From Thermoplasmata archaeon (lineage in GTDB: Archaea > Thermoplasmatota > Thermoplasmata > Lutacidiplasmatales > UBA184): a stretch of DNA of 64,000 nt. The position numbers and the translations under genes were made by a program. The DNA lies in assembly GCA_049802875.1 (NCBI GenBank), contig JBARNH010000007.1, forward strand, positions 67,194-131,193, in the 5' to 3' direction. The number at the start of each line of letters is the position of its first letter. The first letter of the stretch is position 1. Below the pieces are notes generated by a model. That model saw only the letters and a program-made list of their open reading frames with translations, made no database searches and was not told where the DNA came from. Positions 4,874 through 63,702 of the stretch are shown here, in pieces.

Positions 4874-5968
4874 CTAAGACCCCGATGCATGCTGCAATCG
4901 ATGCTCCATCGCACGCATTTCACGCATTAGCCGATCTTCAACCTGGCTCACTCGTTGAACTGCGATCCGGTCCGCCAGGTCGCCGATCGCCGAGTAGCAG
5001 CCCTTGCAGACGTAGACATACCGGCCGGACCGATCCATTGAAGGGAGTGGCGACGTGCCATGGAGGTTCAATCCAGTGGCTTCCTTGTCGACTGTGAGTG
5101 AAACGAATTGGACACCATGACCAGTCCCCTCCCTTCCGCACACCCAGCATTTGGCTTTCAACGCAAGATTGCCTGATTTGATCGCCGCACTCTGGGCGTT
5201 GTCATCGTAGCCCGCCTGCGCCCAGTACTGCTGGGCAGTTTGGAAGTGCTCGGCGGCAGTCATTGGGTCGGTGCCTTCGAGAGATTTCCCCAATACCTCG
5301 AACGACAGGGCCATCAATATCGGCGCTTGAAAATCCGCCGGAATGGCTCGATGCTCAAGAAGTTCAGGGAGGTAAAGGACCTTGTTTCCCAACTGGCGAT
5401 ATTCGTCGGCGAGGCTCTGGAGGCCCTGTGCCAAACTCTCGGGATTGCCAGACTGGGAGCGAGCCATGGCCGTCAGGCTGGCGTACCGTGCAGTCAGCTG
5501 CAATTCGTTCGCCAATTCACTAGAACTGGTCCCTCTCGCCCCAAGTTTGAGCTCAATCGTTCCGGGAATGTTTTGGAGCAGCGAAAATAGTGCCATCAGC
5601 GAGGATGGATCCGAGTTTCTCACTGCGCTCGAAAGTAGGTTGGTGTAGGCCGTCGCGACGTTGGCGTACAAGAGGTTACCCTCTCGCGAAAACTTTCGAG
5701 TTGCATCGATGAACTTCTCACTGGCCCTCGAATGATCGCCGCGTCGGGCAAGGTCGAGGCCTTGCTCCAACGTCGCAGCCCCATCCTTGATGATCGGCAC
5801 AGGCAGAGGACCGACCATAGAATCTGTCTCTTCCAGCGTATAAAAGGCACTGAAGCTCAGGTCGTATCGTTCCCTGGGCTGAATCGAGCCCCGGAGGGGT
5901 TCCTGCATCTCGGATGAAGCGGACCACTCTGCTCCCGCGCTGGTGCGGCACGGGCACGATCGGTGCAA
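4874..5968 (-). CDS. hypothetical helical protein with C-terminal CxxC-N35-CxxC zinc ribbon
   Basis: 364-aa ORF. Alternative starts are at 5908 (MQEPL) or 5818 (MVGPL). The body is alpha-helical (TPR-like); the C-terminus has CWVCG...YVCKGC followed by a charged tail. It is probably co-transcribed with 3225..4841. Confidence 0.55.
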   Translation of the reverse strand: MHRSCPCRTSAGAEWSASSEMQEPLRGSIQPRERYDLSFSAFYTLEETDSMVGPLPVPIIKDGAATLEQGLDLARRGDHSRASEKFIDATRKFSREGNLLYANVATAYTNLLSSAVRNSDPSSLMALFSLLQNIPGTIELKLGARGTSSSELANELQLTARYASLTAMARSQSGNPESLAQGLQSLADEYRQLGNKVLYLPELLEHRAIPADFQAPILMALSFEVLGKSLEGTDPMTAAEHFQTAQQYWAQAGYDDNAQSAAIKSGNLALKAKCWVCGREGTGHGVQFVSLTVDKEATGLNLHGTSPLPSMDRSGRYVYVCKGCYSAIGDLADRIAVQRVSQVEDRLMREMRAMEHRLQHASGS

Positions 5969-5982
5969 TCAACCGCGCAGCC
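5961..5982. repeat. palindromic motif copy (degenerate)
   Basis: CGGTGCAATCAACCGCGCAGCC. Confidence 0.3.
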
Positions 5983-6010
5983 AGTCCTGACGACAAGGGT
6001 CCCTCGGGTG

Positions 6011-6029
6011 GGTGCAACGGTCGTTGCAC
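6011..6029. repeat. GGTGCAA-Nx-TTGCACC family palindromic motif
   Basis: GGTGCAACGGTCGTTGCAC (N4 spacer variant), upstream of the Zn-ribbon gene pair. Confidence 0.5.
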
Positions 6030-6489
6030 GCATCTGGCTATCGCCCGCGCTGGGATCGCGTATCCGAATCCCGTTTTCGAGCGGTTAACGAGACCCTTGC
6101 TCGCCAGGTATTTATTCCGGGTAGCTCTTCGCACTGTTGGAGGGCACAGAATCGAAGTAGATGCGGGGAGGCGGGAGCTTCTCAACTGGACCCCGGGAAC
6201 GGCCCGGGTTACGCCTTGGTTGGGGCGAGAATCCGGTCTGCTAATATCAATTGTTAAAATCAACTTTGAGCCCGATTAACGGGGCGTAAAACCTGAACTA
6301 AATCTGGACCACTTCTACGTGTGCTTCTGTAAGGAAGCTTCCGAGACGATTCACTAATCGACCCTTATTCCGATAACCATCTTAGCAAACAGGGAAGACT
6401 TCGAAACACAACCGCGCCTCGACCGTCCGAGCGAGAAGGATCTCTCGACTCTAGCGTCGCCCAAGGTTCGAGCCCGAAGGAAGCAGAAT

Positions 6490-6906
6490 ATGGCGACGAG
6501 GATTGGAGAAGAGGGAGAGCGCGAGACACCGCCGCCCGAGCAGAGGGGGAGACTTCTGCGCCCAAGCACCGTAGCAGTGCTGAAACAAGCCCTTCAGCAC
6601 TACTTGGAGCACGAGCGTGACTTCGTGGACGCTTACTTCCCCGAAGTCGCGAGACGCGGATACGTGACATGGGGGGATGTGTTTGGACTGAGCGACCGAC
6701 AAGCGGATGCATGCCGCCCAATATTGTTGGAAAGCATCCGACACTTCTTGAAAGAGGATGCCAGAGAGCGGAACCGCAACGTCCACCTGTTGACCCGCGA
6801 ACCGGTCGATCCAAACTTCGTTTCTTTCCCCGCCCGAAAGGCGAAGGCTTGGACAGAGGCGCTTCGCGACCTCTGCAACGTTTTCGGGCTGGAGTGCTTG
6901 GGATAA
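6490..6906 (+). CDS. hypothetical protein
   Basis: 138-aa ORF with balanced amino-acid composition. GGAAG lies 8 nt upstream of the ATG. It is followed immediately by a perfect hairpin plus T-tract. Confidence 0.5.
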   Translation: MATRIGEEGERETPPPEQRGRLLRPSTVAVLKQALQHYLEHERDFVDAYFPEVARRGYVTWGDVFGLSDRQADACRPILLESIRHFLKEDARERNRNVHLLTREPVDPNFVSFPARKAKAWTEALRDLCNVFGLECLG

Positions 6907-6923
6907 ATCGGACGGCGGGCCAC

Positions 6924-10750: not shown

Positions 10751-10770
10751 GGTGCAATGAAGTTTGCAAC
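10751..10770. repeat. GGTGCAA-N6-TTGCACC family palindromic motif
   Basis: GGTGCAATGAAGTTTGCAAC. First of a tandem doublet. Confidence 0.6.
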
Positions 10771-10787: not shown

Positions 10788-10807
10788 GGGTGCAAAGTGT
10801 TTGCGCC
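10788..10807. repeat. GGTGCAA-N6-TTGCACC family palindromic motif
   Basis: GGGTGCAAAGTGTTTGCGCC. Second of the doublet. Confidence 0.5.
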
Positions 10808-11242: not shown

Positions 11243-12367
11243 GTGCAGCCCTACGATCCACAACGTCCGGCGAGCCCCGGGACGTTTGCCGGACGTCACG
11301 AACTGTTGGAGTTCGCCGGCAATGCTCTGCGGGTCGCCGCGACACTTCATCGCGGGAGCGCGATTCTGCTTTACGGGTACCGGGGGAGTGGTAAGACCTC
11401 GGCCCTCCGAAAGATTCAATCCATTGTTAGAGACACTACCCCACACGGCGTTGTTATTGAAGTTCCACTCCGTGTGCCTAGCACAGAAGCGATGCTGGTC
11501 CACAGCATCGCCGAGATGGTACGTCGCGAAGTGACGTCCCAGGAAAAACTCACAAGCCGGATGAAGAAAGCGCTCGGAAACCTGAGCGCGGTAACGGTTC
11601 TGGGGAGCGGGATCGAGCGAACGAAACCACTACCCTTCACGCCCTCCACACTCCTCACAGTGTGGAAGGACGCACTCCTTGCACTCGGGGATCTGCCCCT
11701 TTTGGCAATCAGCATCGACGACGCCGAGCTTCTCAAGGCCGGCGAAATTGGGATTCTCAAGACGATGGTTGAAACAGACTCTCCAGTGCCGATTCTGATG
11801 GTGGTTGCTGGTGGACCTGAGCTCATCGAGAAACTCTCTCTTCGCGAAGCGTCACCAATCCTTCGGTCGTTCTCGGGTGCAGTCTTTGACATCGGCCAGT
11901 TCTCGGAGGTGGAAACTCTGGAGGCCCTGGAAGCCCCCGTTAAACAGATCAAGGGGACCGGACGGTGGGACGCCTCGGCGGTTAAGGCGATTCACCATCT
12001 GACACACGGATACCCCTACCTGGTGCAATGCTTCGCGGCGGCGGCATATCAAGACAGTCGACGCATCAAGGGTGAAGACGTTCAACGGGCGATCCCTGGA
12101 GCCATGCAACTGGCTTCGAGCTGGCTCGAACGCGAGCTTCCGGAAGCCTCAGACGAAGACATCAGGGCATTCGCCAAAATCGCCACTTCAGGCAAAGTCG
12201 AGTTTCGAAGTTCCGACGCCATCCGGATGGGCATCAATCACATCTATCTCTCAAGGCTCACTACTCAAGGAGTCCTCAAGCGGCTGGCCCGGGGTCATTA
12301 CGAGCTTCGAATGGCGCCCGCGATCGCATACTTTCACGCGCTGAGGCGAGGGCTAAGCGCAGTCTGA
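11243..12367 (+). CDS. AAA+ ATPase of the archaeal-ATPase (Arch_ATPase-like) family with C-terminal winged-helix-like region
   Basis: Walker A YGYRGSGKTSAL. Walker B LLAISIDDAEL. Overall architecture resembles orphan archaeal ATPases. An AT-rich region lies upstream. Confidence 0.65.
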   Translation: MQPYDPQRPASPGTFAGRHELLEFAGNALRVAATLHRGSAILLYGYRGSGKTSALRKIQSIVRDTTPHGVVIEVPLRVPSTEAMLVHSIAEMVRREVTSQEKLTSRMKKALGNLSAVTVLGSGIERTKPLPFTPSTLLTVWKDALLALGDLPLLAISIDDAELLKAGEIGILKTMVETDSPVPILMVVAGGPELIEKLSLREASPILRSFSGAVFDIGQFSEVETLEALEAPVKQIKGTGRWDASAVKAIHHLTHGYPYLVQCFAAAAYQDSRRIKGEDVQRAIPGAMQLASSWLERELPEASDEDIRAFAKIATSGKVEFRSSDAIRMGINHIYLSRLTTQGVLKRLARGHYELRMAPAIAYFHALRRGLSAV

Positions 12368-12537: not shown

Positions 12538-12559
12538 GGGTGCAATGAAGCTTGCACCC
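12538..12559. repeat. GGTGCAA-N6-TTGCACC family palindromic motif
   Basis: GGGTGCAATGAAGCTTGCACCC. Between convergent genes. Confidence 0.65.
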
Positions 12560-13146: not shown

Positions 13147-13267
13147 AGACCCGCTTGGCGTCTTGCATTAAATGGGCTGGTTTCCGAATGGATGGTCCTC
13201 GTCACGGAGCATCGAACCGGTTTGTAACGAGCGAATTGCGTAATGGGAAGCTCGTTCGGGTTGAGGT

Positions 13268-13289
13268 GGGTGCAATAGCACTAACACCC
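13268..13289. repeat. palindromic motif copy (degenerate 3' half)
   Basis: GGGTGCAATAGCACTAACACCC. Confidence 0.4.
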
Positions 13290-13570
13290 ATCACTCAGCA
13301 TTAGGTGTAATCGAGCCTGCGGCCAAAACTCTGATTCGCGCGAGAAGCCATTCTCGGGAGCGGAGTGCGGCAGACCGCCAACCCAGCGTTGACAATCCGC
13401 GTAAATTCCATTCGTTTCGTTCGGGAATCTGATTGGCGCCTCTGACCGCGTATTCGGCCACACACCCCCGCGCCAGAGTTGTGACGCGGATCAGAAGCAT
13501 GGCCGCCACAACCGACCGCTGCGTTCTAATAATATGAAACCGCATCAATGCGCATCATCCGGGCTTCCAT

Positions 13571-15437: not shown

Positions 15438-15459
15438 GGGTGCAAAGCCGCTTGCAACC
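15438..15459. repeat. GGTGCAA-N6-TTGCACC family palindromic motif
   Basis: GGGTGCAAAGCCGCTTGCAACC. First of a tandem doublet. Confidence 0.6.
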
Positions 15460-15475: not shown

Positions 15476-15497
15476 GGGTGCAATAGTACTTGCTCCC
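15476..15497. repeat. GGTGCAA-N6-TTGCACC family palindromic motif
   Basis: GGGTGCAATAGTACTTGCTCCC. Second of the doublet. Confidence 0.55.
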
Positions 15498-15590: not shown

Positions 15591-16313
15591 TCATGCTGGT
15601 TCAATCGAACTGACAGGAATGCAACTCTGGACCATGTTGGCGAAACGCGACCAGCGAGAGAGGTTTGTCCGGCTTTCAGGGCTGCCTTGAAGCAATCTCG
15701 ATAACGTGTCGACATACGTCTTCCGATCGTTGACGCGACTCAGCACCAACTTGAACTTCCTCAGAGCAACTGACTGGAGGAACCGGCCGAACAGCTCACG
15801 GACCTCTCCTAGATTGACTTCCTGACTCATGATGCCGAAGAGATCGGTGAGGTCGTGGGGGCGTCCGGCTAGGAGCTTCGTCGCCCACAGCCCTTCCAAG
15901 CGCACCACATCCACCTGACTGCTTAGGGGCCCGGAGAGAAGCTCGAGGCGAACGGACCGTGGGCTACGAAGCAGCCAATCTCCGGGGATGGTCACGCCCG
16001 AGTCTCTGTCGCGCACCCCGCCTATCATCAGGTCTAGCGTGATCGCCCGATATTCCCATCGTTGAACCTCGAGGCTGGCTCTCCCTTGGTGGAAAACACG
16101 ATGCCCCGGGGCCAACAGTAGGTGGTGAGATTTTAGCCAGTCGGCCCAATCAACCCTACTCCGTTCGGAGACGACGACGTCGACATCAACCGAGTACCGT
16201 GGGGTGCCGTAGGCGGCGACCGCGTAGCCACCCACAACCACGCCATCGAGCTCCGTCGGCCAAGCCTCGAGCAGCCTGGCTACCTGGAGCTCACGCTGAT
16301 CCGCGTCGATCAT
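15591..16313 (-). CDS. abiEii: AbiEii-like nucleotidyltransferase (type IV toxin-antitoxin toxin candidate)
   Basis: The ORF-track ORF is 15591..16454. The likely start is the ATG at 16313 (MIDADQ...). It has the pol-beta NTase motif GG-x13-DVDV (VVGGYAVAAYGTPRYSVDVDVVV). It overlaps the upstream wHTH gene by 23 nt. Confidence 0.55.
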   Translation of the reverse strand: MIDADQRELQVARLLEAWPTELDGVVVGGYAVAAYGTPRYSVDVDVVVSERSRVDWADWLKSHHLLLAPGHRVFHQGRASLEVQRWEYRAITLDLMIGGVRDRDSGVTIPGDWLLRSPRSVRLELLSGPLSSQVDVVRLEGLWATKLLAGRPHDLTDLFGIMSQEVNLGEVRELFGRFLQSVALRKFKLVLSRVNDRKTYVDTLSRLLQGSPESRTNLSRWSRFANMVQSCIPVSSIEPA

Positions 16314-16875
16314 GCACGAGTTCCGCAGCGTTCGCGAAGATGGCGGGGTGCGCACGTATGAGCTCCAACACGTCGGATCTCGGAATGACGGGCTCCCCGG
16401 CGTGAAACGCCACCTTGACTTCCTCGAGAGGCACGAGCTCGATCCGCGGTCCAATTCGTCGCCTCGACCGTCGCGAAAGTCCCTTTGCGCGCAAGTAACG
16501 GTCCCAGCGCTCCAATGAAGTCGCCGGAACCGCGAGCGTGTAAACGCGAACGAAGACGGAAGGCGACGTTCGGTATCGTCCGCCGGTCCACACCTCGACC
16601 GCGTTCGCTCCCGCCCAGGCCTTCGTCCCCGGACCCCTCAGGAGGGTTTCCCGGATGCGTCGCCACTCGAACCGCCTGAGATCTGGCCGCTCCGTTGGGC
16701 CAAGCCGACGGTACCGCCCTCTCCCGACACGTGCGATGTGCCCGCGCGCCTTCAGTTCGCTGAGCACCTTGCCTGCACGGGGATTGGCCACGCGACTCGC
16801 GAAGTCTCGCACAGTGAATTCTGAGATCCCGTACAGATGGTCAATGGCATCGACGTACGCGGTCGCCATGGTCAC
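16291..16875 (-). CDS. abiEi: AbiEi-like winged-helix antitoxin/transcriptional regulator
   Basis: 194 aa with an N-terminal wHTH (FTVRDFASRV..GKVLSELKARGHIARVGRGRY). GTG start at 16875 (ATG at 16869). It sits directly upstream of the NTase gene with overlapping ends. Confidence 0.55.
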   Translation of the reverse strand: MTMATAYVDAIDHLYGISEFTVRDFASRVANPRAGKVLSELKARGHIARVGRGRYRRLGPTERPDLRRFEWRRIRETLLRGPGTKAWAGANAVEVWTGGRYRTSPSVFVRVYTLAVPATSLERWDRYLRAKGLSRRSRRRIGPRIELVPLEEVKVAFHAGEPVIPRSDVLELIRAHPAIFANAAELVHDRRGSA

Positions 16876-16915: not shown

Positions 16916-17023
16916 AGGTCGATTTCTCGCCGGAGGCTGCGCCACGCGATAGCCGAAGTCGAGACGCTCCGATGAGGGCGGCTCACGGGTCGGAAAGGTG
17001 CAACGCCCATTGCGCCCGGGTCT

Positions 17024-17632
17024 CTACTTTCGACGCGAGGTTCCGGCCCTGCCTCGGGATAAGTTCCAGGGAAAAGAACGTTCGGGTTGGTCTCTAGAGG
17101 ACAGACGAGACGCCGCCGTCTCGATCGCTAACTGAGCCGAAGCCACCGAGCCAGAGAAGCGGGGCGCTCGAGCGCTTGCACTCCACATTGCCCAGCTTTC
17201 TGCTTCGAGCGCGTGCGCGCCGGAGCTGGTATGCACAGACCGGGTGACGACCAACAACCGCTGTTCGAGAGCACGTAGAGCGGGTCGGAACCCTTGAGAT
17301 CTCGCCCCAAAGTTGGCTGGCAGGTGGTCGCTCCGTAAGGTTCCATCGCGATCGATTCGGGCCAAGAGTTGTTGTGCAACGACACTGAGTCCGGCCATCT
17401 GCCAGGATGTCCGAGCTTCTCCTACTCTAACTAGCGCCGGCCAGAGTCGCCGATGGACCATTGTGAGCTTTCTGTTCCAGATCCGCAGGACTAGAACGTC
17501 GGGATCGGCCTCGAGAGCCTCAGCCACCTGATAGATCAACCGTCCGGTCGGATGCCCCCACCACGACCCGGAGACGGGCGCGCCCACGACTATCGAGACG
17601 AGAGATGGAACGGTCGAATCCGAAACAGGCAT
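17024..17632 (-). CDS. hypothetical protein
   Basis: The ORF-track ORF is 17024..17875. The start at 17632 (MPVSDS...) is preferred. The longer version overlaps the SRPBCC gene and contains a palindromic-motif half-site at 17756-17780. Confidence 0.4.
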   Translation of the reverse strand: MPVSDSTVPSLVSIVVGAPVSGSWWGHPTGRLIYQVAEALEADPDVLVLRIWNRKLTMVHRRLWPALVRVGEARTSWQMAGLSVVAQQLLARIDRDGTLRSDHLPANFGARSQGFRPALRALEQRLLVVTRSVHTSSGAHALEAESWAMWSASARAPRFSGSVASAQLAIETAASRLSSRDQPERSFPWNLSRGRAGTSRRK

Positions 17633-17813
17633 CAGGCCAATTCTGCGGAGTTCCTTCTTGACACGAGATTGGGCCTGTTGGACGTCACTTGCGACCACAC
17701 CCTCGGAATCGTCGCCTAAGAGATGAAAGATTGGACTCAGATACTTTCGTTCAGGTAGGTGTAACGAGTCTTGCACCCACAACGAAGAGCGGGTGGCGAG
17801 GTGAGCTGAGTAC

Positions 17814-18382: not shown

Positions 18383-18403
18383 GTTGCAACGCTACTTGCA
18401 CTC
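18383..18403. repeat. GGTGCAA-N6-TTGCACC family palindromic motif
   Basis: GTTGCAACGCTACTTGCACTC. Confidence 0.55.
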
Positions 18404-20796: not shown

Positions 20797-20818
20797 AGGT
20801 GCGATCTGACTCGCACCT
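20797..20818. repeat. palindromic motif variant (TGCGA..TCGCA)
   Basis: AGGTGCGATCTGACTCGCACCT, 7 nt after the MFS stop. Confidence 0.5.
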
Positions 20819-22894: not shown

Positions 22895-22915
22895 GTTGTA
22901 AGGGTACTTGCACCC
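22895..22915. repeat. GGTGCAA-N6-TTGCACC family palindromic motif
   Basis: GTTGTAAGGGTACTTGCACCC. Confidence 0.5.
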
Positions 22916-23541: not shown

Positions 23542-23561
23542 GGGTGCAATCGACATTGCAC
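23542..23561. repeat. GGTGCAA-N6-TTGCACC family palindromic motif
   Basis: GGGTGCAATCGACATTGCAC. Confidence 0.65.
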
Positions 23562-23620
23562 GGAGAAGGGCAAGCAGCCTGCGTGGTCGACGCGTTTTTG
23601 GCGGTCGTGCGAGCCGACGC

Positions 23621-24001: not shown

Positions 24002-24339
24002 GACGCACGGAGGCTGAGGCGGGTTTTATGTCTACCCTTGTCGGGAGACAAGCCAAGACCGGCTCAGAAGGATCCCTTTGCCGGCGGGCGTGTGCTCTTT
24101 GATTACTTGACCTTCTTCTAACGGGGGGGTTGAGTAAGGACCTGTATATCGCCGCCGGGTTGAGCTAGCCGAATGTCACGTTAGTACAACGCATCGCGGA
24201 CCCGGCTGGCCCCAGTCGACGCTGTACCCAAGCTGGGTGAAACCGCGATCGCGTCCCCGGGGGGCCCTCTCTCCGAGCCCGTTTCAGCCAACGGCCCAGA
24301 TGCCCCGATAGCAGACTGCGGACACACATATGTCATCGC

Positions 24340-25933: not shown

Positions 25934-25955
25934 GGGTGCAACTGACATTTCACCC
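25934..25955. repeat. GGTGCAA-N6-TTGCACC family palindromic motif
   Basis: GGGTGCAACTGACATTTCACCC, plus a half-site GATTGCACGG at 25971. Confidence 0.55.
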
Positions 25956-26142
25956 ACAGGTTCCAATGGAGATTGCACGGGCCCCAGGAGAAATCATCCG
26001 CTGCCTGGCACAGTAGAGAAACGACTATTCCGGTGCCATCCAGCCGTCGGCCGGGAGTAAGCGGTCGGTCTCGAAAACTCGGGCTACGGCGATAGGACGC
26101 CGTGTAACCCTTCACTAGCGTTGGTCCCAGAATGCCACAGGC

Positions 26143-26727: not shown

Positions 26728-26748
26728 GAGTGCTACGCGACTCGCACC
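26728..26748. repeat. palindromic motif variant (TGCTA..TCGCA)
   Basis: GAGTGCTACGCGACTCGCACC. Confidence 0.4.
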
Positions 26749-29005: not shown

Positions 29006-29027
29006 CACTCGGTGTGGGGTCAACTGA
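29006..29027. repeat. GGTGCAA-N6-TTGCACC family palindromic motif
   Basis: GGGGTCAACTGACATTGCACCC. Confidence 0.55.
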
Positions 29028-29103
29028 CATTGCACCCTTCTGTGGCGGGCAGTAGACAGGACTTAAGTGACCCACCACTAGCGGCGCGCCGAAGGTTCGG
29101 AAC

Positions 29104-30287: not shown

Positions 30288-30309
30288 GGCTGCAACGCGT
30301 CTTGCGCCC
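30288..30309. repeat. GGTGCAA-N6-TTGCACC family palindromic motif
   Basis: GGCTGCAACGCGTCTTGCGCCC. Confidence 0.5.
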
Positions 30310-31968: not shown

Positions 31969-31990
31969 GAGTGCAACGCTGCATGCACCC
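31969..31990. repeat. GGTGCAA-N6-TTGCACC family palindromic motif
   Basis: GAGTGCAACGCTGCATGCACCC. Confidence 0.5.
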
Positions 31991-35272: not shown

Positions 35273-35292
35273 AGGTGCAATACTACTTGCAC
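35273..35292. repeat. GGTGCAA-N6-TTGCACC family palindromic motif
   Basis: AGGTGCAATACTACTTGCAC. Confidence 0.65.
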
Positions 35293-35537
35293 ATTGAAGG
35301 TGAAGATGGGGCAAGCCGCAACTGAGACTACGCCCGGGGGGGCACTTTCACAGGGATTTGAAGCCGAGACGAGCGAGGCTGCAGCCGACATTACACCCGC
35401 CAACCGACGAGCTCCGGCACCAGTGATCCGCTTCACGGGGTAGCCGACCTGCGTGAAACTTCGGTGAGAGCGTTTGGGAGAAGCCAAGGCTTGATGCTTG
35501 AGGATCCCCATACCGAGCTGACAATCCGGGGGGGACC

Positions 35538-36047: not shown

Positions 36048-36263
36048 GTTCGTGACCGCGCATCCCGGCCGCTCTCTGCCATGAAGACTCATCGGGGCAA
36101 ATGGTGCGAGCCGGGATTTCGGATAATCGTACCCAGCGTGTGTGGAACGTGCCTACAGCGAGATTGAGTATGATCGCGCCTTCGCCCGCGACCACTGGGT
36201 GATTAGTGGGTGCAAGGCTAGTTGAGCCCAGTGCCCAAGTTGACCGAAGTCAGCCAATGAAAA

Positions 36264-36754: not shown

Positions 36755-36778
36755 TGGTTGCAATCAACATTGCAGCCA
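36755..36778. repeat. GGTGCAA-N6-TTGCACC family palindromic motif
   Basis: TGGTTGCAATCAACATTGCAGCCA. Between the divergent ferredoxin and Rieske genes. Confidence 0.6.
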
Positions 36779-37956: not shown

Positions 37957-38047
37957 CGGACGGGTTTCCGGTCAGATGATGCTCGGGACGACCCCTCGAA
38001 CCGATTTGTATCAAGGGGGTTGTGTGAGGCGAGGCTTGTTGCACCGA

Positions 38048-39156: not shown

Positions 39157-39178
39157 TGGTGCAACGCAGCTTGCACAC
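39157..39178. repeat. GGTGCAA-N6-TTGCACC family palindromic motif
   Basis: TGGTGCAACGCAGCTTGCACAC. Confidence 0.65.
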
Positions 39179-39233: not shown

Positions 39234-39255
39234 AGGTGCAATCTCCATCGCACTC
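39234..39255. repeat. GGTGCAA-N6-TTGCACC family palindromic motif
   Basis: AGGTGCAATCTCCATCGCACTC. Second copy within 80 bp. Confidence 0.5.
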
Positions 39256-44294: not shown

Positions 44295-44316
44295 AGGTGC
44301 AATTGCCCTTGCACAC
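44295..44316. repeat. GGTGCAA-N6-TTGCACC family palindromic motif
   Basis: AGGTGCAATTGCCCTTGCACAC. Confidence 0.65.
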
Positions 44317-53251: not shown

Positions 53252-53272
53252 GGTTGCGATGGACATTGCACC
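53252..53272. repeat. GGTGCAA-N6-TTGCACC family palindromic motif
   Basis: GGTTGCGATGGACATTGCACC. Confidence 0.55.
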
Positions 53273-55068: not shown

Positions 55069-55074
55069 CGGCCG

Positions 55075-55959
55075 GTGGACGCTGACCTCCCCCACCCACC
55101 GGTGTTCCAGTCGACGGCGAGCCGTCTCGCCCGATCCGGTCCGCCGGCGATCCGGGCCGAACGCCTCGAAGTACGGTACCGGAACAAGCTCGTGTGGAAG
55201 GACGCTACGTTCGATGTCCAGCCCGGCGAGTTCGTCGCGGTCATCGGCCCCAATGGGGCGGGCAAGACGACGCTCTTCCGCATGCTGCTCGGACTCCACT
55301 GGCCGTCGAGCGGGCACCTTTCCGTCTTCGGCTCCCCTCCCCGCCGGGGCAACTACCGGATCGGCTACGTCCCGCAACGGCACACGATCGACCGAGAGAC
55401 GCACCTCGAGTGCGACAAACTCGTCCGCCTGGGCTACCCGGGGACCCGATGGGGGCCGGGGAAGCGCTGGGCCCCTTTGCAGTGGGGTCCCCGATTCCGA
55501 TTGGGGGCGGAGCGCGAGGCGGCGGCCCGAGCGCTCGAGGATGTTGGGGCTTCCGACCTCGGCTCCAAATCGCTGGGCGCGCTCTCCGGCGGGGAGTTGC
55601 AGCGGATCTTCCTGGCCGAGGCGCTGGTGGGGAGCCCCGACATGCTGTTGCTCGACGAGCCGCTCTCTAACCTCGACCTTCGCCGGAGCCGGGAGTTGGT
55701 CGAGACGATCCACGGGTTGGTCGTCTCTCGCGGGGTGACGACCCTCCTCGTCGCCCACGACATCAATCCGATGATCAAGTGCCTCGACAAGGTGATCTAC
55801 ATCGCCAACGGCCACGTCGCGGTGGGAGCCCCGGACGACGTCCTCTCTTCGGAGCGGCTCTCGGCGCTTTACGGGGTCCACGTCGAAGTGCTGCACGATT
55901 CCCGGGGCAACCTGGTGATCGTGGGCGGAGAGGACGAACGCGGGGAGGAAGGGGCATGA
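55075..55959 (+). CDS. metal ABC transporter ATP-binding protein (ZnuC-like)
   Basis: GTG start. Walker A GPNGAGKTT. Signature LSGGELQRI. Walker B MLLLDEPLSNLD. Confidence 0.8.
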   Translation: MDADLPHPPVFQSTASRLARSGPPAIRAERLEVRYRNKLVWKDATFDVQPGEFVAVIGPNGAGKTTLFRMLLGLHWPSSGHLSVFGSPPRRGNYRIGYVPQRHTIDRETHLECDKLVRLGYPGTRWGPGKRWAPLQWGPRFRLGAEREAAARALEDVGASDLGSKSLGALSGGELQRIFLAEALVGSPDMLLLDEPLSNLDLRRSRELVETIHGLVVSRGVTTLLVAHDINPMIKCLDKVIYIANGHVAVGAPDDVLSSERLSALYGVHVEVLHDSRGNLVIVGGEDERGEEGA

Positions 55960-57449
55960 GCGGGGGCTGGAGCGGCATTCCCTGGAGCTGGAACTTCATC
56001 ACCGACGTGCGGACCCTCTGGTCGTACGAGTTCATGCGCAATGCGGTGGAGGCCGGAACGATCATCGCGATCATGGCCGGCATCATCGGCTACTTTGTCG
56101 TCCTGCGCCGTTCGTCCTTCGCCAGTCATGCCCTCGGCCACACGGGATTCTCGGGAGCGGCCGCCGCCGTCCTGGTCGGAGCCCAGCCGGTCTTCGGTCT
56201 CTTGATCTTCACCATCGCGGCGGCGAGTGGCATGGCCGTCCTGGGCACCCGTACGTCGAGCCGGGATGTCGAGATCGGGACGGTGCTCGCCTTCTCCCTG
56301 GGACTCGGATTGCTGTTTCTCAGCCTCTATCAGGGGTACGCCCAGGAGGCGTACTCGATCCTCTTTGGGGAGGTGCTGGGCATCAGCACCGCCGAAGTGG
56401 CCTTCACGTTCTGGAGCTGCTTGGGGGTCCTCGCGATCCTGGCGCTGATCTACCGCCCGCTACTGTTCGCGTCGCTTGACGAAGATGTCGCGGAGGCGAA
56501 GGGATTGCCCCTGGTCGGGCTCAACCTCGCGTTCCTGATTCTCCTCGCGGTGACGATCTCGTTCGCGGTCCAGATCATCGGTGTTCTGCTCATCTTTGCG
56601 CTGACGGTCACACCCGCCGCCATCGCAGTGCGCTTGACCAAACGGGCCCTGTGGGCGGTGGTGGTCTCCATCCTCGTGGCCGTGACCTCCGTCTGGGGGG
56701 GGTTGTTCGTCGCGCTTTGGACGAACTATCCCGCGAGTTTCTTCATCGTGGGCATCGTCTTCGTCGAGTACGTGTGCATCCGGGGCGTCGGCGTGCTCCG
56801 GGAAACGGCCCTCCTGCAAGCGGTCGATGCGTCCGAGCGGGAGGGAGTGCGATCGCTCCGGGACGCTTCGCTCACCGCGTCCATCTCCCAGGGGTTGTTC
56901 CTCGGTGGCGCTGCCTTCCTGACGGTGAGCCTGCTTGCGTACCCGGGGGCAGCGTGGAACCCCGCCGGCCTCTACGCGCACGCGGTCTGGGCGATTCTCT
57001 GCCTCGCATCAGGAGCGATCGTCGGGACGGCCTCCTTTCTCCTCTACTTCTCGGGGTTTCGAAAGATGGCCACCTCCTCCCGAGAGTTCACCCCTCCCGC
57101 CTTCCTGACTCTCGTAGGACTTCTGGGGTTTGCCCTGACTGCCGGGGGGCTCGGGCTCTATCTCTCGGGGGTAGCCCTCACCGCGACCTCCTACGGCCTC
57201 GCTCCAGTGGCGGTCCTGTTCGGCGCTCCGCTGCTCTTCCTGGGGGTGATCCTCTCCGTGGTGGGCCTCTTCGGCCAGGCGATGGGCAGCTGGCGCGCAG
57301 GATTCAGGTACCAGGACGGCACGCTGCGGGCCGGCGCGATTCTCATGATCCTCCCGGCGGTCGGACACGGGGTCTCCTACGTTGGTTACCGTCGAGCGCT
57401 CGCTCGCGAACCGAGCCTCGCCGCGCCTCCTTTGAGCGCATCCGCCTGA
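55956..57449 (+). CDS. ABC-3 family (ZnuB-like) permease with ~200-aa C-terminal multi-TM extension
   Basis: ATGA overlap with the ZnuC-like stop. The N-terminal ~280 aa match ABC-3 permeases. The C-terminal part adds about 5 more predicted helices. Confidence 0.7.
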   Translation: MSGGWSGIPWSWNFITDVRTLWSYEFMRNAVEAGTIIAIMAGIIGYFVVLRRSSFASHALGHTGFSGAAAAVLVGAQPVFGLLIFTIAAASGMAVLGTRTSSRDVEIGTVLAFSLGLGLLFLSLYQGYAQEAYSILFGEVLGISTAEVAFTFWSCLGVLAILALIYRPLLFASLDEDVAEAKGLPLVGLNLAFLILLAVTISFAVQIIGVLLIFALTVTPAAIAVRLTKRALWAVVVSILVAVTSVWGGLFVALWTNYPASFFIVGIVFVEYVCIRGVGVLRETALLQAVDASEREGVRSLRDASLTASISQGLFLGGAAFLTVSLLAYPGAAWNPAGLYAHAVWAILCLASGAIVGTASFLLYFSGFRKMATSSREFTPPAFLTLVGLLGFALTAGGLGLYLSGVALTATSYGLAPVAVLFGAPLLFLGVILSVVGLFGQAMGSWRAGFRYQDGTLRAGAILMILPAVGHGVSYVGYRRALAREPSLAAPPLSASA

Positions 57450-58308: not shown

Positions 58309-58330
58309 GGGTGCACGTACCATCGCACCC
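58309..58330. repeat. palindromic motif variant (TGCAC..TCGCA)
   Basis: GGGTGCACGTACCATCGCACCC. Confidence 0.4.
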
Positions 58331-59690: not shown

Positions 59691-59710
59691 AGGTGCAAGG
59701 CCGATTGCAC
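59691..59710. repeat. GGTGCAA-N6-TTGCACC family palindromic motif
   Basis: AGGTGCAAGGCCGATTGCAC. Confidence 0.65.
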
Positions 59711-59740
59711 AGAGAGCCGTCGCGGCACCGGAGAGTTTGG

Positions 59741-60193
59741 TTAGGCGGACTTCCCGCTTCCGCCAGTCGCTCCGAGTGCAGCAATCTGGGCACGCGCCGC
59801 CTGCGCGATGTCAGAGCCGGTGTTCGCGTGGCCATTGATCCCCCAACCTCCTTCCGGGGATTCATAGATCAGTACCCACGTTCGCTCCGCGAGCGACGGA
59901 TCGGCTGCCGCCTTCGCGATGATCGCCGTTAGCTCAGCGACCACTCCGAGTTGCTTCTCGCGGTCCAGAACGCCAACCGGTGTCAACACTTGGACTCGCA
60001 CGTAGTTACTGTCCCCATCAACGTTCGATATTGAATCCGCGGGGAGGTCGTGCACGAAGGCCGCCGTGTTCTTCCGGAAGAGTGGGAGCGGGGGGACCTT
60101 CTCCCACTTCATCACCGCGGCCGCGAGATCCTTCGCGAGCGTGAGCCGGTCGGCGAATGTCCCGGTCTTCGCGTACACATCAATCATCGGCAT
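59741..60193 (-). CDS. tautomerase-family protein (tandem 4-OT-like domains)
   Basis: Begins MPMIDVYAKTG (Pro1 after Met removal). About 150 aa. Divergent from the TetR gene. Confidence 0.55.
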   Translation of the reverse strand: MPMIDVYAKTGTFADRLTLAKDLAAAVMKWEKVPPLPLFRKNTAAFVHDLPADSISNVDGDSNYVRVQVLTPVGVLDREKQLGVVAELTAIIAKAAADPSLAERTWVLIYESPEGGWGINGHANTGSDIAQAARAQIAALGATGGSGKSA

Positions 60194-60950: not shown

Positions 60951-61871
60951 GTGAGCCGTTATATCAAGGGATTCCGACGAAGGGACATGCCGAACACACC
61001 TCGATATGCGGTGGTGACCAGCGCAACCCGCGGGGCGGGAAAGGCCGTCGCTATCGAGCTTGGGGGAGCGGGTTGGACGATCGCAGTGACCGGCAGAAGC
61101 ACCCGCGAGACTCCCAGCCGGGAAGGGATCGGGGGCACCCTTGAGGACACGGCAACGGCGGTCGAGCATGCGGGGGGAAGATGCCTGCCCACCCGATGCG
61201 ACCTCTCCCGCGAAGAAGACTTGACGACGTTGACAGAGAAGGTGAAGAGAGAATTCCCGACGCTTGACCTCCTCGTGAACTGCGCCTGGGGAGGTTACGA
61301 GGAACACGACCTCGAAAATTTCGTTCGACCGTTCTGGGAGCAGCCGACTCATCATTGAGATCGGATGTTCAATTCTGGAGTCCGTCTCACACTTCGGACT
61401 TCGGCCCGTCTCACCCCACTCCTGATGCCTAACCGCCGTGGTTGCATCTTCAATATTGTGGCCTGGTTGGAGGGAGAGTACCTGGGAAACCTCTACTACG
61501 ACACGGCAAAGTCCGCCATTATCCGAATGACTGAGGGGATGGCAAAGGAGCTCCGTCCCTACGGGGTTGCGGCCATCGCGTTGGTTCCCGGGTTCATGCG
61601 CACGGAACGCGTCACGGCATCGCATGCCGTGCATCCCTTCGACCTCAGCTCGACGGAATCGCCCTCGTATCTTGGGAGAGCCGTGGCGGCGCTGGCCAGC
61701 GACCCAGATATCCTCGCAAAATCCGGCCAGCTCCTTTACGTGGGGAATCTGGCGAAAGTCTACGGGTTCACCGACATCGACGGGACTCAGCCGCCCGTAT
61801 TCCGACCCGGCGATTTGGAACGTGCCTACGGAGAATCGCAATCGGGCGAGCCCCCGTCAGATCCTCCCTGA
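60951..61871 (+). pseudogene. short-chain dehydrogenase/reductase (SDR) interrupted by in-frame TGA at 61356-61358
   Basis: ORFs 60951..61358 (TGxxxGxG: VVTSATRGAGKAVA) and 61365..61871 (YDTAKSAI = YxxxK) are in the same frame. The junction reads ...EQPTHH*DRMFNSGV, where the SDR consensus has Trp (E.WDRVF.VN). This fits a TGG to TGA change. Confidence 0.6.
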
Positions 61872-62092
61872 GCGCGAGCGCGCTCACCCAGGCAAGCCGT
61901 GAGGGCCACCGAAGGTGCAGCCCCAATTACGCGCCCGACTTCCCATTGGAAGAGAGGATTCCGGTAACCCACGTCAAGAAGCTTGTGAACGCGATCAGAG
62001 GCCCATGAGCGGACTGGCATGAGACAGCGGTCGCCAGTACCCCTGGGGGTACAGTATTACTCCCCGTAGCCGTTCCGTCGTGGGATTCAGGG

Positions 62093-62386
62093 ATGGCGAC
62101 GTACGCGCTTTTCGAGGTCGATTGGCACGATCAGAATATGGCCAAGGAGTATCGGGAGAAGTTCGGACCGGTTCTCGATAAATATCGGGGCAAGACCCTC
62201 TGCGCCGGCCCGCCTCAGGTGATCGAAGGGAGCTGGAATCCGGCGAGAGTGGTCATACTCGAGTTTCCGACCACCGACGACTTTCGCACCTGGTATGCCT
62301 CTCCGGAGTATGCGCCCGTGCTCAAACTTCGTAAGGAAGGCGCGACCACCAAGACGGTGGTGGTCGTCGAAGGGCCGACTCGCTAA
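62093..62386 (+). CDS. DUF1330-family protein
   Basis: 97 aa: YALFEVDWHDQNMAKEYREKFGPVLDKYRGK...VVILEFPTTDDFRTWYASPEY. Confidence 0.7.
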   Translation: MATYALFEVDWHDQNMAKEYREKFGPVLDKYRGKTLCAGPPQVIEGSWNPARVVILEFPTTDDFRTWYASPEYAPVLKLRKEGATTKTVVVVEGPTR

Positions 62387-62522
62387 CCGGCCCGGAACGG
62401 TCCCCGACCTGTCCGCCGCTGTTGCGGCTTCCGTGAGCGCTTCCTAAGAGCCGCCCCTCCTTCGCCAATCGCGAACAATGCCGGCTCCGAGGAGGCGAGC
62501 GGGGGCGCGTCGCCCGACCGGT

Positions 62523-63188
62523 ATGCCTGCATCGGCCCGTGCTTTCTGGACTCGATTATACGCGGAGATCCCTACTCAAGGCCTCCCGTGGGCCAACACG
62601 GGTCCGTTCCCGCCACTGGTTCGAGCGGTGGAGAACGGCTGGTTGAGTACGCCAGGTCCCGTGCTCGATGTTGGGTGTGGAGTCGGCACGAACACCCTCT
62701 GGCTCGCCAGTCAGGGTTTCCAAGCGACCGGGATTGATATCGCCCCCGGGGCGGTCGCGGCGGCGGTATCGAATCGGGGGGCGACACTTCGGAATCCAAA
62801 TTTCTTGGAGGATGACGTGCTCGTCAGTTCTCTACCCACGGCGAAATTCCGATCTGCGGTTGACGTGGGATGTTTCCAGACCCTTCCCCCGCGTACGCGA
62901 AGGGCGTTTTCGGCCGGCCTTGCCCGCCTGCTCTCACCGGGAGCGCCCTATCTTCTCTTTTGGGTCGCCCGAGAGGAGACGGGACCATGGGGTCCTCCCC
63001 ACCGCCTGTCGGTCGGCGAGGTCGTCGACACCTTCGAGTCGTTGTTCCTCGTCGAGCAGGTCGAGTATCGACCCCGCACCGTTCGCCTCACGCGCCAACT
63101 GATGCGGTCGGCTCGCCCCCTGGCGACTCTCTCCGGATACACCGCCCGACTCGTGCGCCGGCGCGCTCCCCAACCTCCGGCCAAATGA
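62523..63188 (+). CDS. class I SAM-dependent methyltransferase
   Basis: Motif I VLDVGCGVGTNTLWLA. Acidic post-I motif GIDIAP. ORF-track start 62478. Confidence 0.65.
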   Translation: MPASARAFWTRLYAEIPTQGLPWANTGPFPPLVRAVENGWLSTPGPVLDVGCGVGTNTLWLASQGFQATGIDIAPGAVAAAVSNRGATLRNPNFLEDDVLVSSLPTAKFRSAVDVGCFQTLPPRTRRAFSAGLARLLSPGAPYLLFWVAREETGPWGPPHRLSVGEVVDTFESLFLVEQVEYRPRTVRLTRQLMRSARPLATLSGYTARLVRRRAPQPPAK

Positions 63189-63681
63189 CCTGATTTTGGC
63201 GTGATCGAGCGTGATCGAACGAACACCGGATCTTGGGTTAGGCCAGGTTCATCGCCTTCCGAACTGATCCAGATCTCGGATCCCTTCCTAGTTGGGGGAC
63301 CTGATTCGATCGGATTTCCGACGGGATCGACTGGCGCCCGCTGCTGGGGGTTTAGGAAGGTACGTGACGTCAAATGTCGGGTTCAATGGTCGCGGTTTCC
63401 CATCCGCTGCGTCAGCGCGAGGGTTCCACTTCGAGGTACGACGCCGACGCTCCCGTGATTCGAGCTCAAGCCTCGAAGAGGAAATGAGCCGTCGACGGGG
63501 CGCTGGCGCACCCCGGACCTGGTGATCAACCGTTTTGGGGTGAAACGTACGCGGCCGCCCGACTCCGGTGCTCGAGGATTCGACCCTGGTGTCACCCGAG
63601 CCCCGGCGCGGATCCCCTCTAGAGTGTGACGACGACCCTTCCCAGGGCGCGGCCCTGAATCGAATGGATTTCGGGTGGAAA

Positions 63682-63702
63682 GGGTGCAACCGACATTGCA
63701 CC
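63682..63702. repeat. GGTGCAA-N6-TTGCACC family palindromic motif
   Basis: GGGTGCAACCGACATTGCACC. Confidence 0.65.

Follow-up and report, generated by a model that had tools for sequence, protein, structure and literature searches.

Polar, co-oriented 26-bp palindromes at gene-module borders in Thermoplasmata accessory islands: candidate recombination sites

The dif sites of Xer systems consist of 11-nt inverted repeats around a 6-nt spacer and are cleaved at the spacer ends (PMC8371274), and archaeal dif sites keep the sequence TAA-N6-8-TTA (PMC11840125). Plasmid dif (pdif) sites of Acinetobacter occur in many copies, each bordering one to three accessory genes that include toxin-antitoxin pairs and regulators; the flanking sites of a module are inverted, and modules are found in varied orders and contexts (PMC6449649, PMC13141974). 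Chromosomal integron arrays, archaeal integrons included, hold small accessory genes parted by co-oriented imperfect palindromes (attC), and the order of their cassettes varies among relatives (PMC9668308). The attC sites are structured single-strand substrates of 55-140 bp with R/L boxes and extrahelical bases, and the cassettes are mostly promoterless and same-sense. REP/BIME (REPIN) elements are extragenic palindromes of 20-40 bp, hairpin-capable, locally dense and often near 3' ends; no RAYT is known from an archaeon (PMC3733652, PMC6006769). Minimal tyrosine-recombinase sites of the loxP/FRT type have symmetric 13-bp arms and an asymmetric 8-bp core that sets direction and recombination outcome; their cores are identical, and a plasmid or phage carries just one or a few of them.

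We analysed a 64,000-nucleotide stretch of DNA from a Thermoplasmata archaeon (the window), in which the first-pass annotation had described a dispersed 20-bp palindrome, GGTGCAA-N6-TTGCACC. The palindrome is real, although loosely described: allowing up to two mismatches over its 14 defined bases gives 27 sites, where first-order Markov simulations predict ~0.07, and only two, at 12539 and 63683, are exact. The coordinates first given hold to within 1-2 nt, except that the site placed at 29006 really lies at 29017 and that at 37378 is only a half-site. Placement had been called intergenic save for one half-site. The bias is indeed strong, with 24 of the 27 sites outside called genes in a window that is 21% non-coding (binomial p = 1e-13), but three sites fall in ORFs: 1879 (FAD-oxidase gene), 6011 (a doubtful 121-aa ORF) and 17758 (a doubtful 5' extension of ORF 17024-17875). 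The sites, with decayed copies and relics, are as follows in window coordinates:

1879..1898: 2 mismatches, in the FAD/BBE oxidase gene; may be chance or a relic; excluded from junctions
3014..3033: decayed intergenic copy, 3 mismatches; similar relics at 25960, 37380, 49303 and 50741
6011..6030: 1 mismatch, 113 bp upstream of minus-strand gene 4874-5908, within doubtful ORF 5914-6279
10751..10770: 1 mismatch, convergent gap, first member of doublet with 10789
10789..10807: 5-nt-spacer variant (GGTGCAA AGTGT TTGCGCC), second member of doublet with 10751
12539..12558: perfect site agtgGGTGCAA TGAAGC TTGCACCcact, convergent gap, DNA hairpin -14.7 kcal/mol
13269..13288: 2 mismatches, 2 bp from the stop of minus-strand 13291-13545
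15439..15458: 1 mismatch, doublet with 15477, spacer polarity shared
15477..15496: 1 mismatch, doublet with 15439
16997..17016: 1 mismatch, 7 bp from the stop of the minus-strand ORF at 17024, adjoins AbiE toxin-antitoxin module
17758..17777: 1 mismatch, 36 bp from the stop of minus-strand AHSA1 gene 17814-18323
18383..18402: 2 mismatches, AHSA1/Rieske gap
20798..20817: 2 mismatches, a compensated pair (GGTGCGA..TCGCACC), 8 bp past the MFS stop, orthologous to L052 2080
22895..22914: 2 mismatches, other border of minus-strand cyclase module 20864-22813
23543..23562: 1 mismatch, lipocalin/glyoxalase gap
24236..24255: decayed, 4 mismatches, left border of ArsR-AHSA1-RibD_C module; L055 equivalent (4240) perfect
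25935..25954: 1 mismatch, 48 bp past the RibD_C stop
26729..26748: 3 mismatches, right border of 4HBT module
29017..29036: 2 mismatches, spacer CTGACA, divergent gap M28/DAO
30289..30308: 2 mismatches, convergent gap DAO/AsnC
31970..31989: 2 mismatches, convergent gap
35274..35293: 1 mismatch, divergent gap GH15/4HBT
35378..35397: 3 mismatches, weaker neighbour of 35274
36209..36228: 2 mismatches, convergent gap 4HBT/ferredoxin
36757..36776: 2 mismatches, centre ~140 bp from each divergent start
38026..38045: half-decayed, 3 mismatches, 3 bp from the stop of minus-strand 38048-39049; orthologue L055 7540 perfect
39158..39177: 1 mismatch, doublet with 39235
39235..39254: 2 mismatches, abuts the stop of minus-strand MarR gene 39254-39742
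44296..44315: 1 mismatch, divergent gap
53253..53272: 2 mismatches, divergent gap M19/metal repressor
58310..58329: 2 mismatches, divergent gap
59692..59711: 1 mismatch, 29 bp from the stop of minus-strand 59741-60193
63683..63702: perfect 20-mer, spacer CCGACA, co-directional gap, next start 78 bp downstream

The conserved unit is longer than the 20 bp first proposed, at ~26 bp, and reads g-T-G-GGTGCAA-[not A]-N4-[not T]-TTGCACC-C-A-c. A logo built from 109 sites gives its geometry, 10-bp inverted arms around a 6-bp asymmetric core. The element is discrete (gTG-GGTGCAA-N6-TTGCACC-CAc), with symmetric GTG…CAC flanks on the palindrome, no conservation beyond the unit and no target-site duplication found. 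The spacer, initially given as N4-6, measures exactly 6 bp in 76 of the 80 sites with at most one mismatch; an N5 variant lies at 10789. The arms are read by sequence, not by pairing, and compensatory pairs are in excess at none of the seven core arm positions. Spacers vary in sequence (only one pair within the window is identical) and show no self-complementarity; their first and last positions are asymmetric, with C…C versus G…G. As DNA hairpins the sites fold at -5 to -15 kcal/mol. The logo lacks a U/T tract, and the palindrome has no match in Rfam.

By analogy, this geometry matches that of an Xer/dif-type tyrosine-recombinase site, a short site with two inverted ~11-bp arms around a 6-bp centre (PMC8371274). 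Unlike in Xer/dif, the two arms are alike, which implies a single, putative recombinase and not XerC plus XerD, and direction is carried by the spacer edges only. The arms end in CAA/TTG, so that the equivalent of the archaeal TAA-N6-8-TTA is CAA-N6-TTG; this departure from the TAA/TTA hallmark of archaeal dif counts against a recombination function. Symmetric arms and an asymmetric core are shared with loxP/FRT-type sites, but here the cores differ between copies.

The sites are polar. On one strand the spacer edges, positions 8 and 13, are C/C, and by this measure the window splits 17:3 (p = 0.003); leave-one-out orientation of sites gave C41/G11 and C46/G12. Inner spacer positions have no C/G bias, so the edge polarity is not a general skew. 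Within loci beyond the window, same-sign pairs outnumber opposite-sign pairs 51:14 (permutation p < 5e-5). Neighbouring sites keep one polarity over 8 to 64 kb, independently of gene direction. The tandem doublets that had been listed are borne out at 10751/10789, 15439/15477 and 39158/39235, and they are direct, not inverted. Co-orientation sets the array apart from dif modules, with their inverted flanking sites, and likens it to integron arrays. Integration of circles at polar sites would yield co-oriented arrays by its very mechanism. Alternatively, co-orientation could reflect replication direction, in line with a weak link between GC skew and site orientation (18 versus 7 loci).

Every type of gap is occupied, as had been claimed (convergent 7/15, divergent 6/13, co-directional 9/24), but "almost every intergenic region" proved too strong: 22 of the 52 gaps of at least 60 bp (42%) hold a site. 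Density is regional, with sites in 19 of 32 gaps at 6-44.5 kb versus 4 of 26 at 44.5-73 kb, a span that reaches 9 kb past the end of the window (Fisher p = 0.001). In all three gap types alike, sites mark the borders of modules of one to three genes, usually with one site per border between functional units (HxlR+MFS+Rieske, ArsR+AHSA1+RibD_C, MarR+ABC, the AbiE toxin-antitoxin pair). In gaps that include a stop codon, the distance from the centre of the site to the closest stop is 9-104 bp, with 10751, 15439 and 63683 as exceptions (142-307 bp), and the next start is usually much farther away; the six occupied divergent gaps carry the site 77-300 bp upstream of both starts. TATA-like boxes lie ~25-35 bp upstream of the ATG in modules, and sites keep no fixed distance to starts or to these boxes.

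At the scale of whole contigs, the motif is concentrated in accessory-gene islands and is not genome-wide. A 2.3-Mb contig holds only two exact 24-mers (18 specified bases), 40 kb apart, and other long contigs hold pairs 24-40 kb apart. The cargo of the islands is cassette-like: GNAT, glyoxalase, lipocalin, SnoaL, 4HBT, Fic/DOC, HepT/MNT, AbiE, hydrolases and small regulators. In and around the window there are also several genes for class III cyclases. The many copies bordering small accessory modules resemble Acinetobacter pdif, although the host here is archaeal and the sites lie on large chromosomal contigs. As in integrons, the site often lies directly past a stop codon, cargo includes GNAT, glyoxalase, lipocalin and toxin-antitoxin genes, and sites of one lineage resemble each other more closely in sequence. 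The present sites are, unlike attC, simple palindromes, and the modules have their own TATA-like promoters and run in either direction; IntI or attI was not found.

At least 16 related species of soil and peat Thermoplasmata, all represented by MAGs, share the motif. Beyond what the first-pass annotation had recognised, the host is an archaeon, and the motif is polar and co-oriented, regional and not genome-wide, and common to many species.

Comparison of related loci reveals modules in changing company. The site past RibD_C at 25935 is conserved in five lineages, among them L210 (with the same spacer CTGACA), L212, L213 and L055, and its L030 equivalent has decayed. Alignment conservation is gone immediately past this site, and each context read continues with something else (4HBT, DUF4760, an unknown gene, a w49318 homologue, a w26788 homologue). 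The 4HBT module (sites 25935-26729) is missing from L030 and L011, where a single decayed site stands instead, and L030 carries the module elsewhere, flanked by two sites. The cyclase module is site-bounded both in the window and in L052; its neighbours differ, and homology begins at the site. GNAT, RibD_C and w38048 homologues have a site directly past the stop in several species. At orthologous positions copies have decayed, many of them without replacement, and orthologous sites are kept while flanks diverge. Neither an excision circle nor a within-species empty-site allele was seen in the MAG data. Because almost every long island gap holds a site, breakpoints near sites are partly expected and the observations are not independent. 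Fragility of the 26-bp palindromes, or homologous exchange between them, could also place breakpoints at sites passively.

We tentatively propose that the palindromes are recombination sites delimiting mobile gene modules, each the recognition core of a sequence-specific dimeric recombinase; judged from sequence, we give this a probability of roughly 0.4. Among the explanations first offered, the site of a dimeric DNA-binding protein fits the fixed 6-bp spacing, the arms without covariation, the spacer polarity and the position at module junctions. A recombination signal fits the same spacing, arms, polarity and junction placement, whereas an uptake signal found no support at all.

An unlikely alternative is an archaeal REP-like element, a hairpin palindrome maintained or spread as replication ssDNA by a RAYT-like or other protein, tolerated between genes only and acting as a passive rearrangement hot spot. 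Its size of 26 bp, 10-bp stem, hairpin energies, strictly extragenic placement, mixture of singletons and doublets and decay at orthologous positions all suit, and gene-blind strand polarity with a weak GC-skew association would suit a lagging-strand ssDNA mechanism (PMC6006769). Against a REP or MITE origin, as first listed, the one-sided GTAG/CGTC tag is absent and the GTG…CAC flanks are symmetric; doublets are direct, unlike the inverted BIME/REPIN; the stem lacks covariation, and the loop is rigid in length and free in sequence. TIRs, target-site duplications, internal sequence and a RAYT are likewise missing, the sites are island-confined and not dispersed, and one arm sequence spans at least 16 species. 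No RAYT subclass is known from archaea (PMC6006769), and a rough motif scan of ~330 kb found no HUH motif. Somewhat less probable still are sites for an abundant architectural or insulator-type dimeric protein that, acting as a silencer, a roadblock or a domain boundary, would keep adjacent transcription units of accessory islands apart and catalyse no recombination. Such proteins that shape domains by roadblock exist in archaea (PMC11840125), and fixed spacing, arm conservation across species, orthologous positions kept despite flank divergence and about one site per gap of whatever type are what they would produce. A homodimer on a symmetric site leaves the co-oriented spacer asymmetry unexplained, however, as it does island restriction and scrambled module order with homology ending at sites, and many sites decay without replacement.

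We regard an RNA hairpin that forms or protects transcript 3' ends, bidirectional through palindromy, as very improbable. The proximity to stop codons and the sites kept just past the stops of GNAT, RibD_C and w38048 homologues speak for it, but it cannot explain why roughly half the divergent promoter gaps hold a site at a place where transcription is unexpected, nor a polarity blind to gene direction, and U/T tract, stem covariation and Rfam match are all wanting. The operator of a global CRP/FNR-type regulator, tied to the many adenylate cyclases, is the least credible of these readings. TGCAA-N6-TTGCA matches the 5-N6-5 geometry of TGTGA-N6-TCACA, and class III cyclase genes are at hand; yet sites are equally common at convergent 3' ends and promoters, keep no set distance to starts or TATA-like boxes, exceed such operators in specificity (18-20 bp) and have a polarity that an operator leaves unexplained.

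For the recombination sites that we favour, the enzyme would most probably be a tyrosine recombinase of the Xer type: the host's own XerA, or a specialised paralogue whose gene lies elsewhere. Pfam found no tyrosine or serine recombinase gene in the window and no recombinase among the 25 commonest of 127 families (117 ORFs) at related loci, and a rough motif scan of ~330 kb for recombinases was negative. A motif common to at least 16 species is expected if the site is tied to a conserved enzyme. One monomer would bind each of the two 10-bp inverted arms (GTGGGTGCAA), cleavage would fall at the spacer edges, and the non-palindromic edges of the 6-bp core (C…C on one strand) would set direction. 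Classical two-strand tyrosine recombination requires matching cores. With spacers this variable, single-strand exchange, as in integrons and IMEX elements, or rare events must be assumed. In islands tens of kb long, sites would part modules that have promoters of their own and hold one to three accessory genes; recombination between two sites in direct orientation would release a module and one site as a circle, and the circle's site could recombine with any other site to re-insert the module. Such excision and re-insertion would keep the sites of an island co-oriented and shuffle module order between lineages. If this is true, these archaea would reshuffle their modules in much the way known for integron cassettes and the dif modules of Acinetobacter.

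The window holds only two exact copies of the 20-mer GGTGCAA-N6-TTGCACC, at 12539 and 63683, and a further 12 and 13 sites carry one and two mismatches, respectively, in the 14 specified bases. First-order Markov simulations predict 0.07 such sites; the 27 present match the copy positions listed in the first-pass annotation. Alignment of the window sites showed that conservation extends past the 20-mer, in the form G-T-(G/A) GGTGCAA … TTGCACC (C/T)-A-C. When 109 sites from the window and related genomes were pooled, information was spread over 9-10 positions per arm (g-T-G-GGTGCAA and TTGCACC-C-A-c) and fell to background outside the 26-bp unit, with no AT-rich peak at a fixed offset. The same pool has no flanking direct repeats, which were sought as target-site duplications under a MITE model; with nothing conserved past 26 bp and no TIR-enclosed internal sequence, a MITE was rejected. 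The spacer is exactly 6 bp long in 76 of the 80 sites with at most one mismatch. A different spacer length is seen in the following window copy:

10789, variant of the site with an N5 spacer

To place the sites relative to genes, we used public gene predictions on near-identical contigs; contigs of the MAGs GCA_049583385.1 and GCA_049800175.1 and of several Logan assemblies match the window at 99.9-100% identity. NCBI assigns the RibD_C protein of the window to a Thermoplasmata archaeon. Non-coding sequence makes up only 21% of the window, yet 24 of the 27 sites lie outside called genes (p = 1e-13), so that the intergenic preference reported in the first-pass annotation holds, but not its exclusivity. 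The statement that the element occupies almost every intergenic region proved too strong, as only 22 of the 52 gaps of at least 60 bp contain a site. All gap types are nevertheless populated, as had been claimed: 7 of 15 convergent, 6 of 13 divergent and 9 of 24 co-directional gaps. Two public gene calls, a 121-aa ORF at 5914-6279 and the 5' extension of the gene at 17024-17875, each hold a good palindromic site; both the ORF and the extension are probably over-predictions. Elsewhere in the window, a short-chain dehydrogenase gene at 60951-61871 appears to be split into ORFs of 135 and 168 aa, is left uncalled in two assemblies and called as two genes in a third, and is probably a pseudogene, and the gene at 55956-57449 encodes a ZnuABC-type metal transporter permease (ABC-3) fused to a DUF973 membrane domain. 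A tRNA scan of the window found none.

Direct reading of the window showed TATA-like boxes (TTTAAG, TTAATA) about 25-35 bp upstream of start codons, a spacing that fits archaeal, largely leaderless genes. The distance from palindrome to start ranges from 69 to more than 800 bp and is never fixed, and the palindrome is therefore not a core promoter, consistent with the lack of an AT peak at a fixed offset. A sigma-54 promoter was likewise rejected: the host is an archaeon, and the -24/-12 spacing is not matched.

At each of the seven core arm pairs, Watson-Crick combinations are as frequent as expected after shuffling, and the arms are conserved by sequence rather than by pairing. The three spacer pairs show no complementarity, and single-strand folding energies of -5 to -15 kcal/mol are unremarkable for most copies. 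The spacer sequence is free, except that position 8 avoids A and position 13 avoids T, and these two edge positions carry a polarity. On the + strand of the window, C prevails over G at the spacer edges in 17 sites and the reverse holds in 3 (p = 0.003). With sites oriented by the other sites of their own locus, position 8 is C in 41 and G in 11 and position 13 is C in 46 and G in 12, whereas the four inner positions have no C/G bias (117 vs 127). Outside the window, 51 within-locus site pairs have the same sign and 14 the opposite one (permutation p < 5e-5), and the signs also agree between loci 24-40 kb apart on one contig. This polarity is independent of the direction of the flanking genes. 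It is shared within doublets 25-80 bp apart, which are therefore direct repeats. Its agreement with the GC skew of 8-kb loci is only 18:7, and the Spearman correlation is not significant. Spacers differ among copies, with a single identical pair among the 27 window sites, and local copying of sites was rejected because the similarity of neighbouring spacers does not significantly exceed that after shuffling (p = 0.10). At one related locus (L037, 1314-5955), the polarity switches cleanly, from two plus to two minus sites, on passing a cyclase gene; the switch may reflect an inversion, a junction of two arrays or a landmark of replication.

The sites are not spread evenly. A site is present in 19 of the 32 long gaps from 6 to 44.5 kb, compared with 4 of 26 between 44.5 and 73 kb, a stretch that takes in 9 kb beyond the window (p = 0.001); on the left, weaker copies run on for 6 kb past the window edge. 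A genome with the density of the window would be predicted to hold dozens of exact 24-mers. One 2.3-Mb contig from a related MAG has only two, 40 kb apart, and on further long contigs the members of a pair are separated by 24-40 kb. We conclude that the sites mark islands of tens of kilobases rather than the whole chromosome, with perhaps 50-250 sites per genome.

To determine the range of the element, we scanned one genome per species from 185,579 prokaryotic species for TGGGTGCAA-N6-TTGCACCCA. The scan returned 63 loci, 31 of them from 16 Thermoplasmata MAGs of soil and peat, so the motif is present in related genomes and is not confined to the window. Additional degenerate copies, 2.5-7 per 10 kb, accompany the match only in the Thermoplasmata loci; elsewhere the matches are single, except in one rumen Bacteroidales MAG. 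In this MAG (RGIG8277; L018, L019, L027, L041 with two copies, L057 and L061), the same 24-bp core forms the apex of a dispersed foldback repeat of about 140 bp, whose outer arms, GGCCAAC … GTTGGCC, resemble attC R boxes. The shared core may reflect chance or a shared binding protein. A scan of viral contigs gave 117 matches, nearly all of one conserved single-copy sequence: about 100 IMG/VR contigs (L093-L209), many of about 40 kb and 60-67% GC, have a single conserved GGTGCAA(T/C)AGCT(G/A)TTGCACC, whose flanks, ggttcg…ctt, are conserved as well. It is apparently a conserved trait of a single phage group and has no connection with the archaeal arrays. Eighteen metagenome loci with DAO orthologues (61-70% identity), mostly without the motif and with no alternative palindrome, were left out of the conservation tests because they are probably from other lineages.

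In the window and in other species, the islands carry what is typical accessory material: ArsR, MarR, TetR and HxlR regulators with their target genes, SRPBCC/AHSA1, RibD_C, 4HBT thioesterases, glyoxalase, lipocalin, SnoaL, GNAT, Fic/DOC, AbiE and HepT/MNT toxin-antitoxin pairs, hydrolases, methyltransferases and many class III cyclase proteins. The class III adenylate/guanylate cyclase-domain family is strongly expanded, which is unusual for archaea, with homologues in 10 of the 31 related loci and fusions to TPR, AAA_16 or alpha/beta-hydrolase domains. Its genes include:

window 20-1396, class III cyclase-domain gene
window 20864-22813, class III cyclase-domain gene
locus L088, 19378-20711, class III cyclase-domain gene
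locus L214, 19266-21377, class III cyclase-domain gene

Several loci of other species share window genes at 65-86% protein identity in a changed order, and here the sites can be compared with the borders of the rearranged segments. The RibD_C, 4HBT, cyclase and glyoxalase modules, and that of the window gene starting at 38048, are discrete, bounded by sites and found in differing contexts. The cyclase module lies between sites at 20798 and 22895 in the window and at 2080 and 4216 in the comparison locus L052, with different neighbours on both sides; its left site aligns base for base between the two, and the sequence beyond the site does not. In the ArsR-AHSA1-RibD_C module, a site follows the RibD_C stop codon by 48 bp in the window, L210, L212/L213 and L055, with the spacer of L210 (CTGACA) identical to that of the window; L030 retains a decayed version, and L011 and L054 have lost the site. 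In a six-way alignment, the RibD_C 3' untranslated stretch and the site align, conservation ends immediately after the site, and the downstream gene differs in every context. The 4HBT module, about 0.8 kb between sites 25935 and 26729, is missing from L030 and L011, in which only a single decayed site lies between the same neighbouring genes; L030 has a 4HBT gene elsewhere, again between two sites. Decayed window sites at 24236 and 38026 have perfect orthologues in L055, at 4240 and 7540. From this comparison, the sites are old, tied to module borders, individually dispensable and coincident with points of gene-order change.

The similarity of the two 4HBT paralogue modules in the window is limited to the coding sequence (76% identity), so they are too old to show borders, and exact-protein look-ups of the window 4HBT gene gave the same context only. 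An apparent module duplication between 12.5-13.3 kb and 37.3-38.1 kb was rejected, as the two segments have only an 85-90-nt non-coding element in common. This element (consensus AAACGGGCTGGTTTCCGGACGGATGG…CGAACCGATTTGTAACGAGG; 13165-13255 and 37949-38039 in the window and 2901-2989 in L045, a locus of another species; about 75-80% identity) lies just left of a palindromic site or half-site in each copy, has no Rfam match, and may represent a small RNA, a leader or a non-coding cassette. In several independent assemblies of this population, contigs stop at about 12507, 13032 and 20469, which suggests structural variation between strains; none of these ends falls exactly at a site, the nearest being 32 bp from site 12539.

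We consider site-specific recombination at module borders the most likely function of the element, with a probability of roughly 0.4, and infer its mechanism from the anatomy of the sites. Inverted, sequence-specific arms of about 10 bp, an exact 6-bp core and a direction encoded in the core would together make up the core site of a tyrosine recombinase, a class of site with inverted arms of roughly 9-13 bp around a central region whose length is constant at 6-8 bp. Bacterial and archaeal dif sites have 11-nt inverted repeats and a 6-nt spacer, at the ends of which cleavage occurs (PMC8371274). Archaeal dif sites keep TAA-N6-8-TTA (PMC11840125); the counterpart in our element is CAA-N6-TTG, and it is therefore not a canonical dif. 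A circle with one polar site would integrate at another such site and leave directly repeated sites, so that an island built in this way would have co-oriented sites whichever way its genes face, and co-orientation would be explained without replication. Recombination would also account for the restriction to islands, the presence of one site per border in all gap types, the gain and loss of a module together with a site, and the shuffled order.

Several points weaken this reading. No tyrosine or serine recombinase gene was found in the window with Pfam or in about 330 kb of related loci with a rough motif scan, and the ten unannotated window proteins include no recombinase or DNA-binding candidate (Pfam, E <= 1). 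The differing cores would hinder classical two-strand exchange. Moreover, breakpoints at sites could have arisen passively at fragile or repeated palindromes, and some coincidence of sites and breakpoints is expected because nearly every island gap has a site. A protein encoded at 11243-12367, close to the AbiEii/AbiEi pair at 15591-16869, has an Orc1/Cdc6-like layout (374 aa, AAA_16/AAA_22 and a C-terminal, AbiEi_4-like winged helix); as an Orc1/Cdc6-like binder it was rejected, having no PDB relative.

Among the other explanations, a REP-like element is unlikely, though it ranks ahead of those that follow. It would share the size, the extragenic location and possibly a single-strand polarity with our sites, but REPs are defined by a GTAG or CGTC tag at one end only (PMC3733652), and the flanks here, GT(G/A)…(C/T)AC, are symmetric. 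The stem has no excess of compensatory changes, the doublets are direct rather than inverted as in BIME/REPIN, and the sites are clustered rather than dispersed. RAYT (Y1 HUH) classes are not known in archaea (PMC6006769), and a motif scan of about 330 kb found no HUH/Y motif. Binding by an architectural or insulator protein would account for conservation and placement; we regard it as somewhat less probable still, since it leaves the polarity, the island restriction and the scrambled gene order unexplained.

Readings tied to transcription fare considerably worse. The proximity of sites to stop codons would suit a bidirectional RNA 3' hairpin, which is nonetheless very improbable given that half of the divergent gaps hold sites, that T is not enriched after the site and that the polarity is independent of genes; searches against Rfam families at gathering thresholds gave no match. 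Even more improbable is a CRP-like operator, for which only the 5-N6-5 geometry speaks: convergent gaps are equally populated, and the distances to starts vary too widely for a CRP/FNR-type operator. Two further candidates were rejected, a CRISPR array because genes lie between the sites, at intervals of 0.04-9 kb, as opposed to short spacers and a regular spacing of about 60-80 bp, and an uptake sequence because its defining features are absent.

The closest known parallels are dif modules on Acinetobacter plasmids and the cassette arrays of integrons, which have been reported in archaea as well. An integron attC has R''/L''/L'/R' boxes over 55-140 bp and extrahelical bases, whereas the element described here is 26 bp long with flanks neither conserved nor structured. 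Integron cassettes are mostly promoterless and in one orientation; here, genes with TATA-like boxes face both ways. Neither an intI integrase nor an attI was found in the 83 kb read around the window, a span that stops short of the island ends. Compared with both systems, the site is minimal with symmetric arms, takes its direction from two core-edge bases and is co-oriented rather than alternating, and the modules are self-expressed in both orientations on an archaeal chromosome. The literature searched contained no paper on this motif or on a comparable archaeal system, and searching it with the two half-site strings returned unrelated primer matches only. Slightly more tentative than the function of the sites is a fuller proposal: soil and peat Thermoplasmata may have a native gene-cassette system, with islands of self-expressed modules of 1-3 genes, 26-bp dif-like sites (10-6-10), a common direction set by the asymmetry of the core and one Xer-type tyrosine recombinase, possibly the housekeeping XerA, that moves the modules. 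Integrons and the dif modules of Acinetobacter would thus be joined by a third cassette platform, the first of its kind described for archaeal chromosomes.

Even without recombination, the element is unusual: few prokaryotes have a palindrome that is conserved in sequence and keeps one polarity over tens of kilobases regardless of transcription, and the literature searched describes none in archaea. If the sites do recombine, they would offer a compact 26-bp site for experiments, much simpler than an integron attC, with a testable direction rule in the two edge bases of the core. Module mobility of the Xer type would then be known from archaeal chromosomes as well as from Acinetobacter plasmids. 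Uncultured, widespread archaea of soil and peat would also have their own platform for collecting and reshuffling accessory genes, among them detoxification enzymes, acetyltransferases, toxin-antitoxin pairs, signalling cyclases and small regulators.
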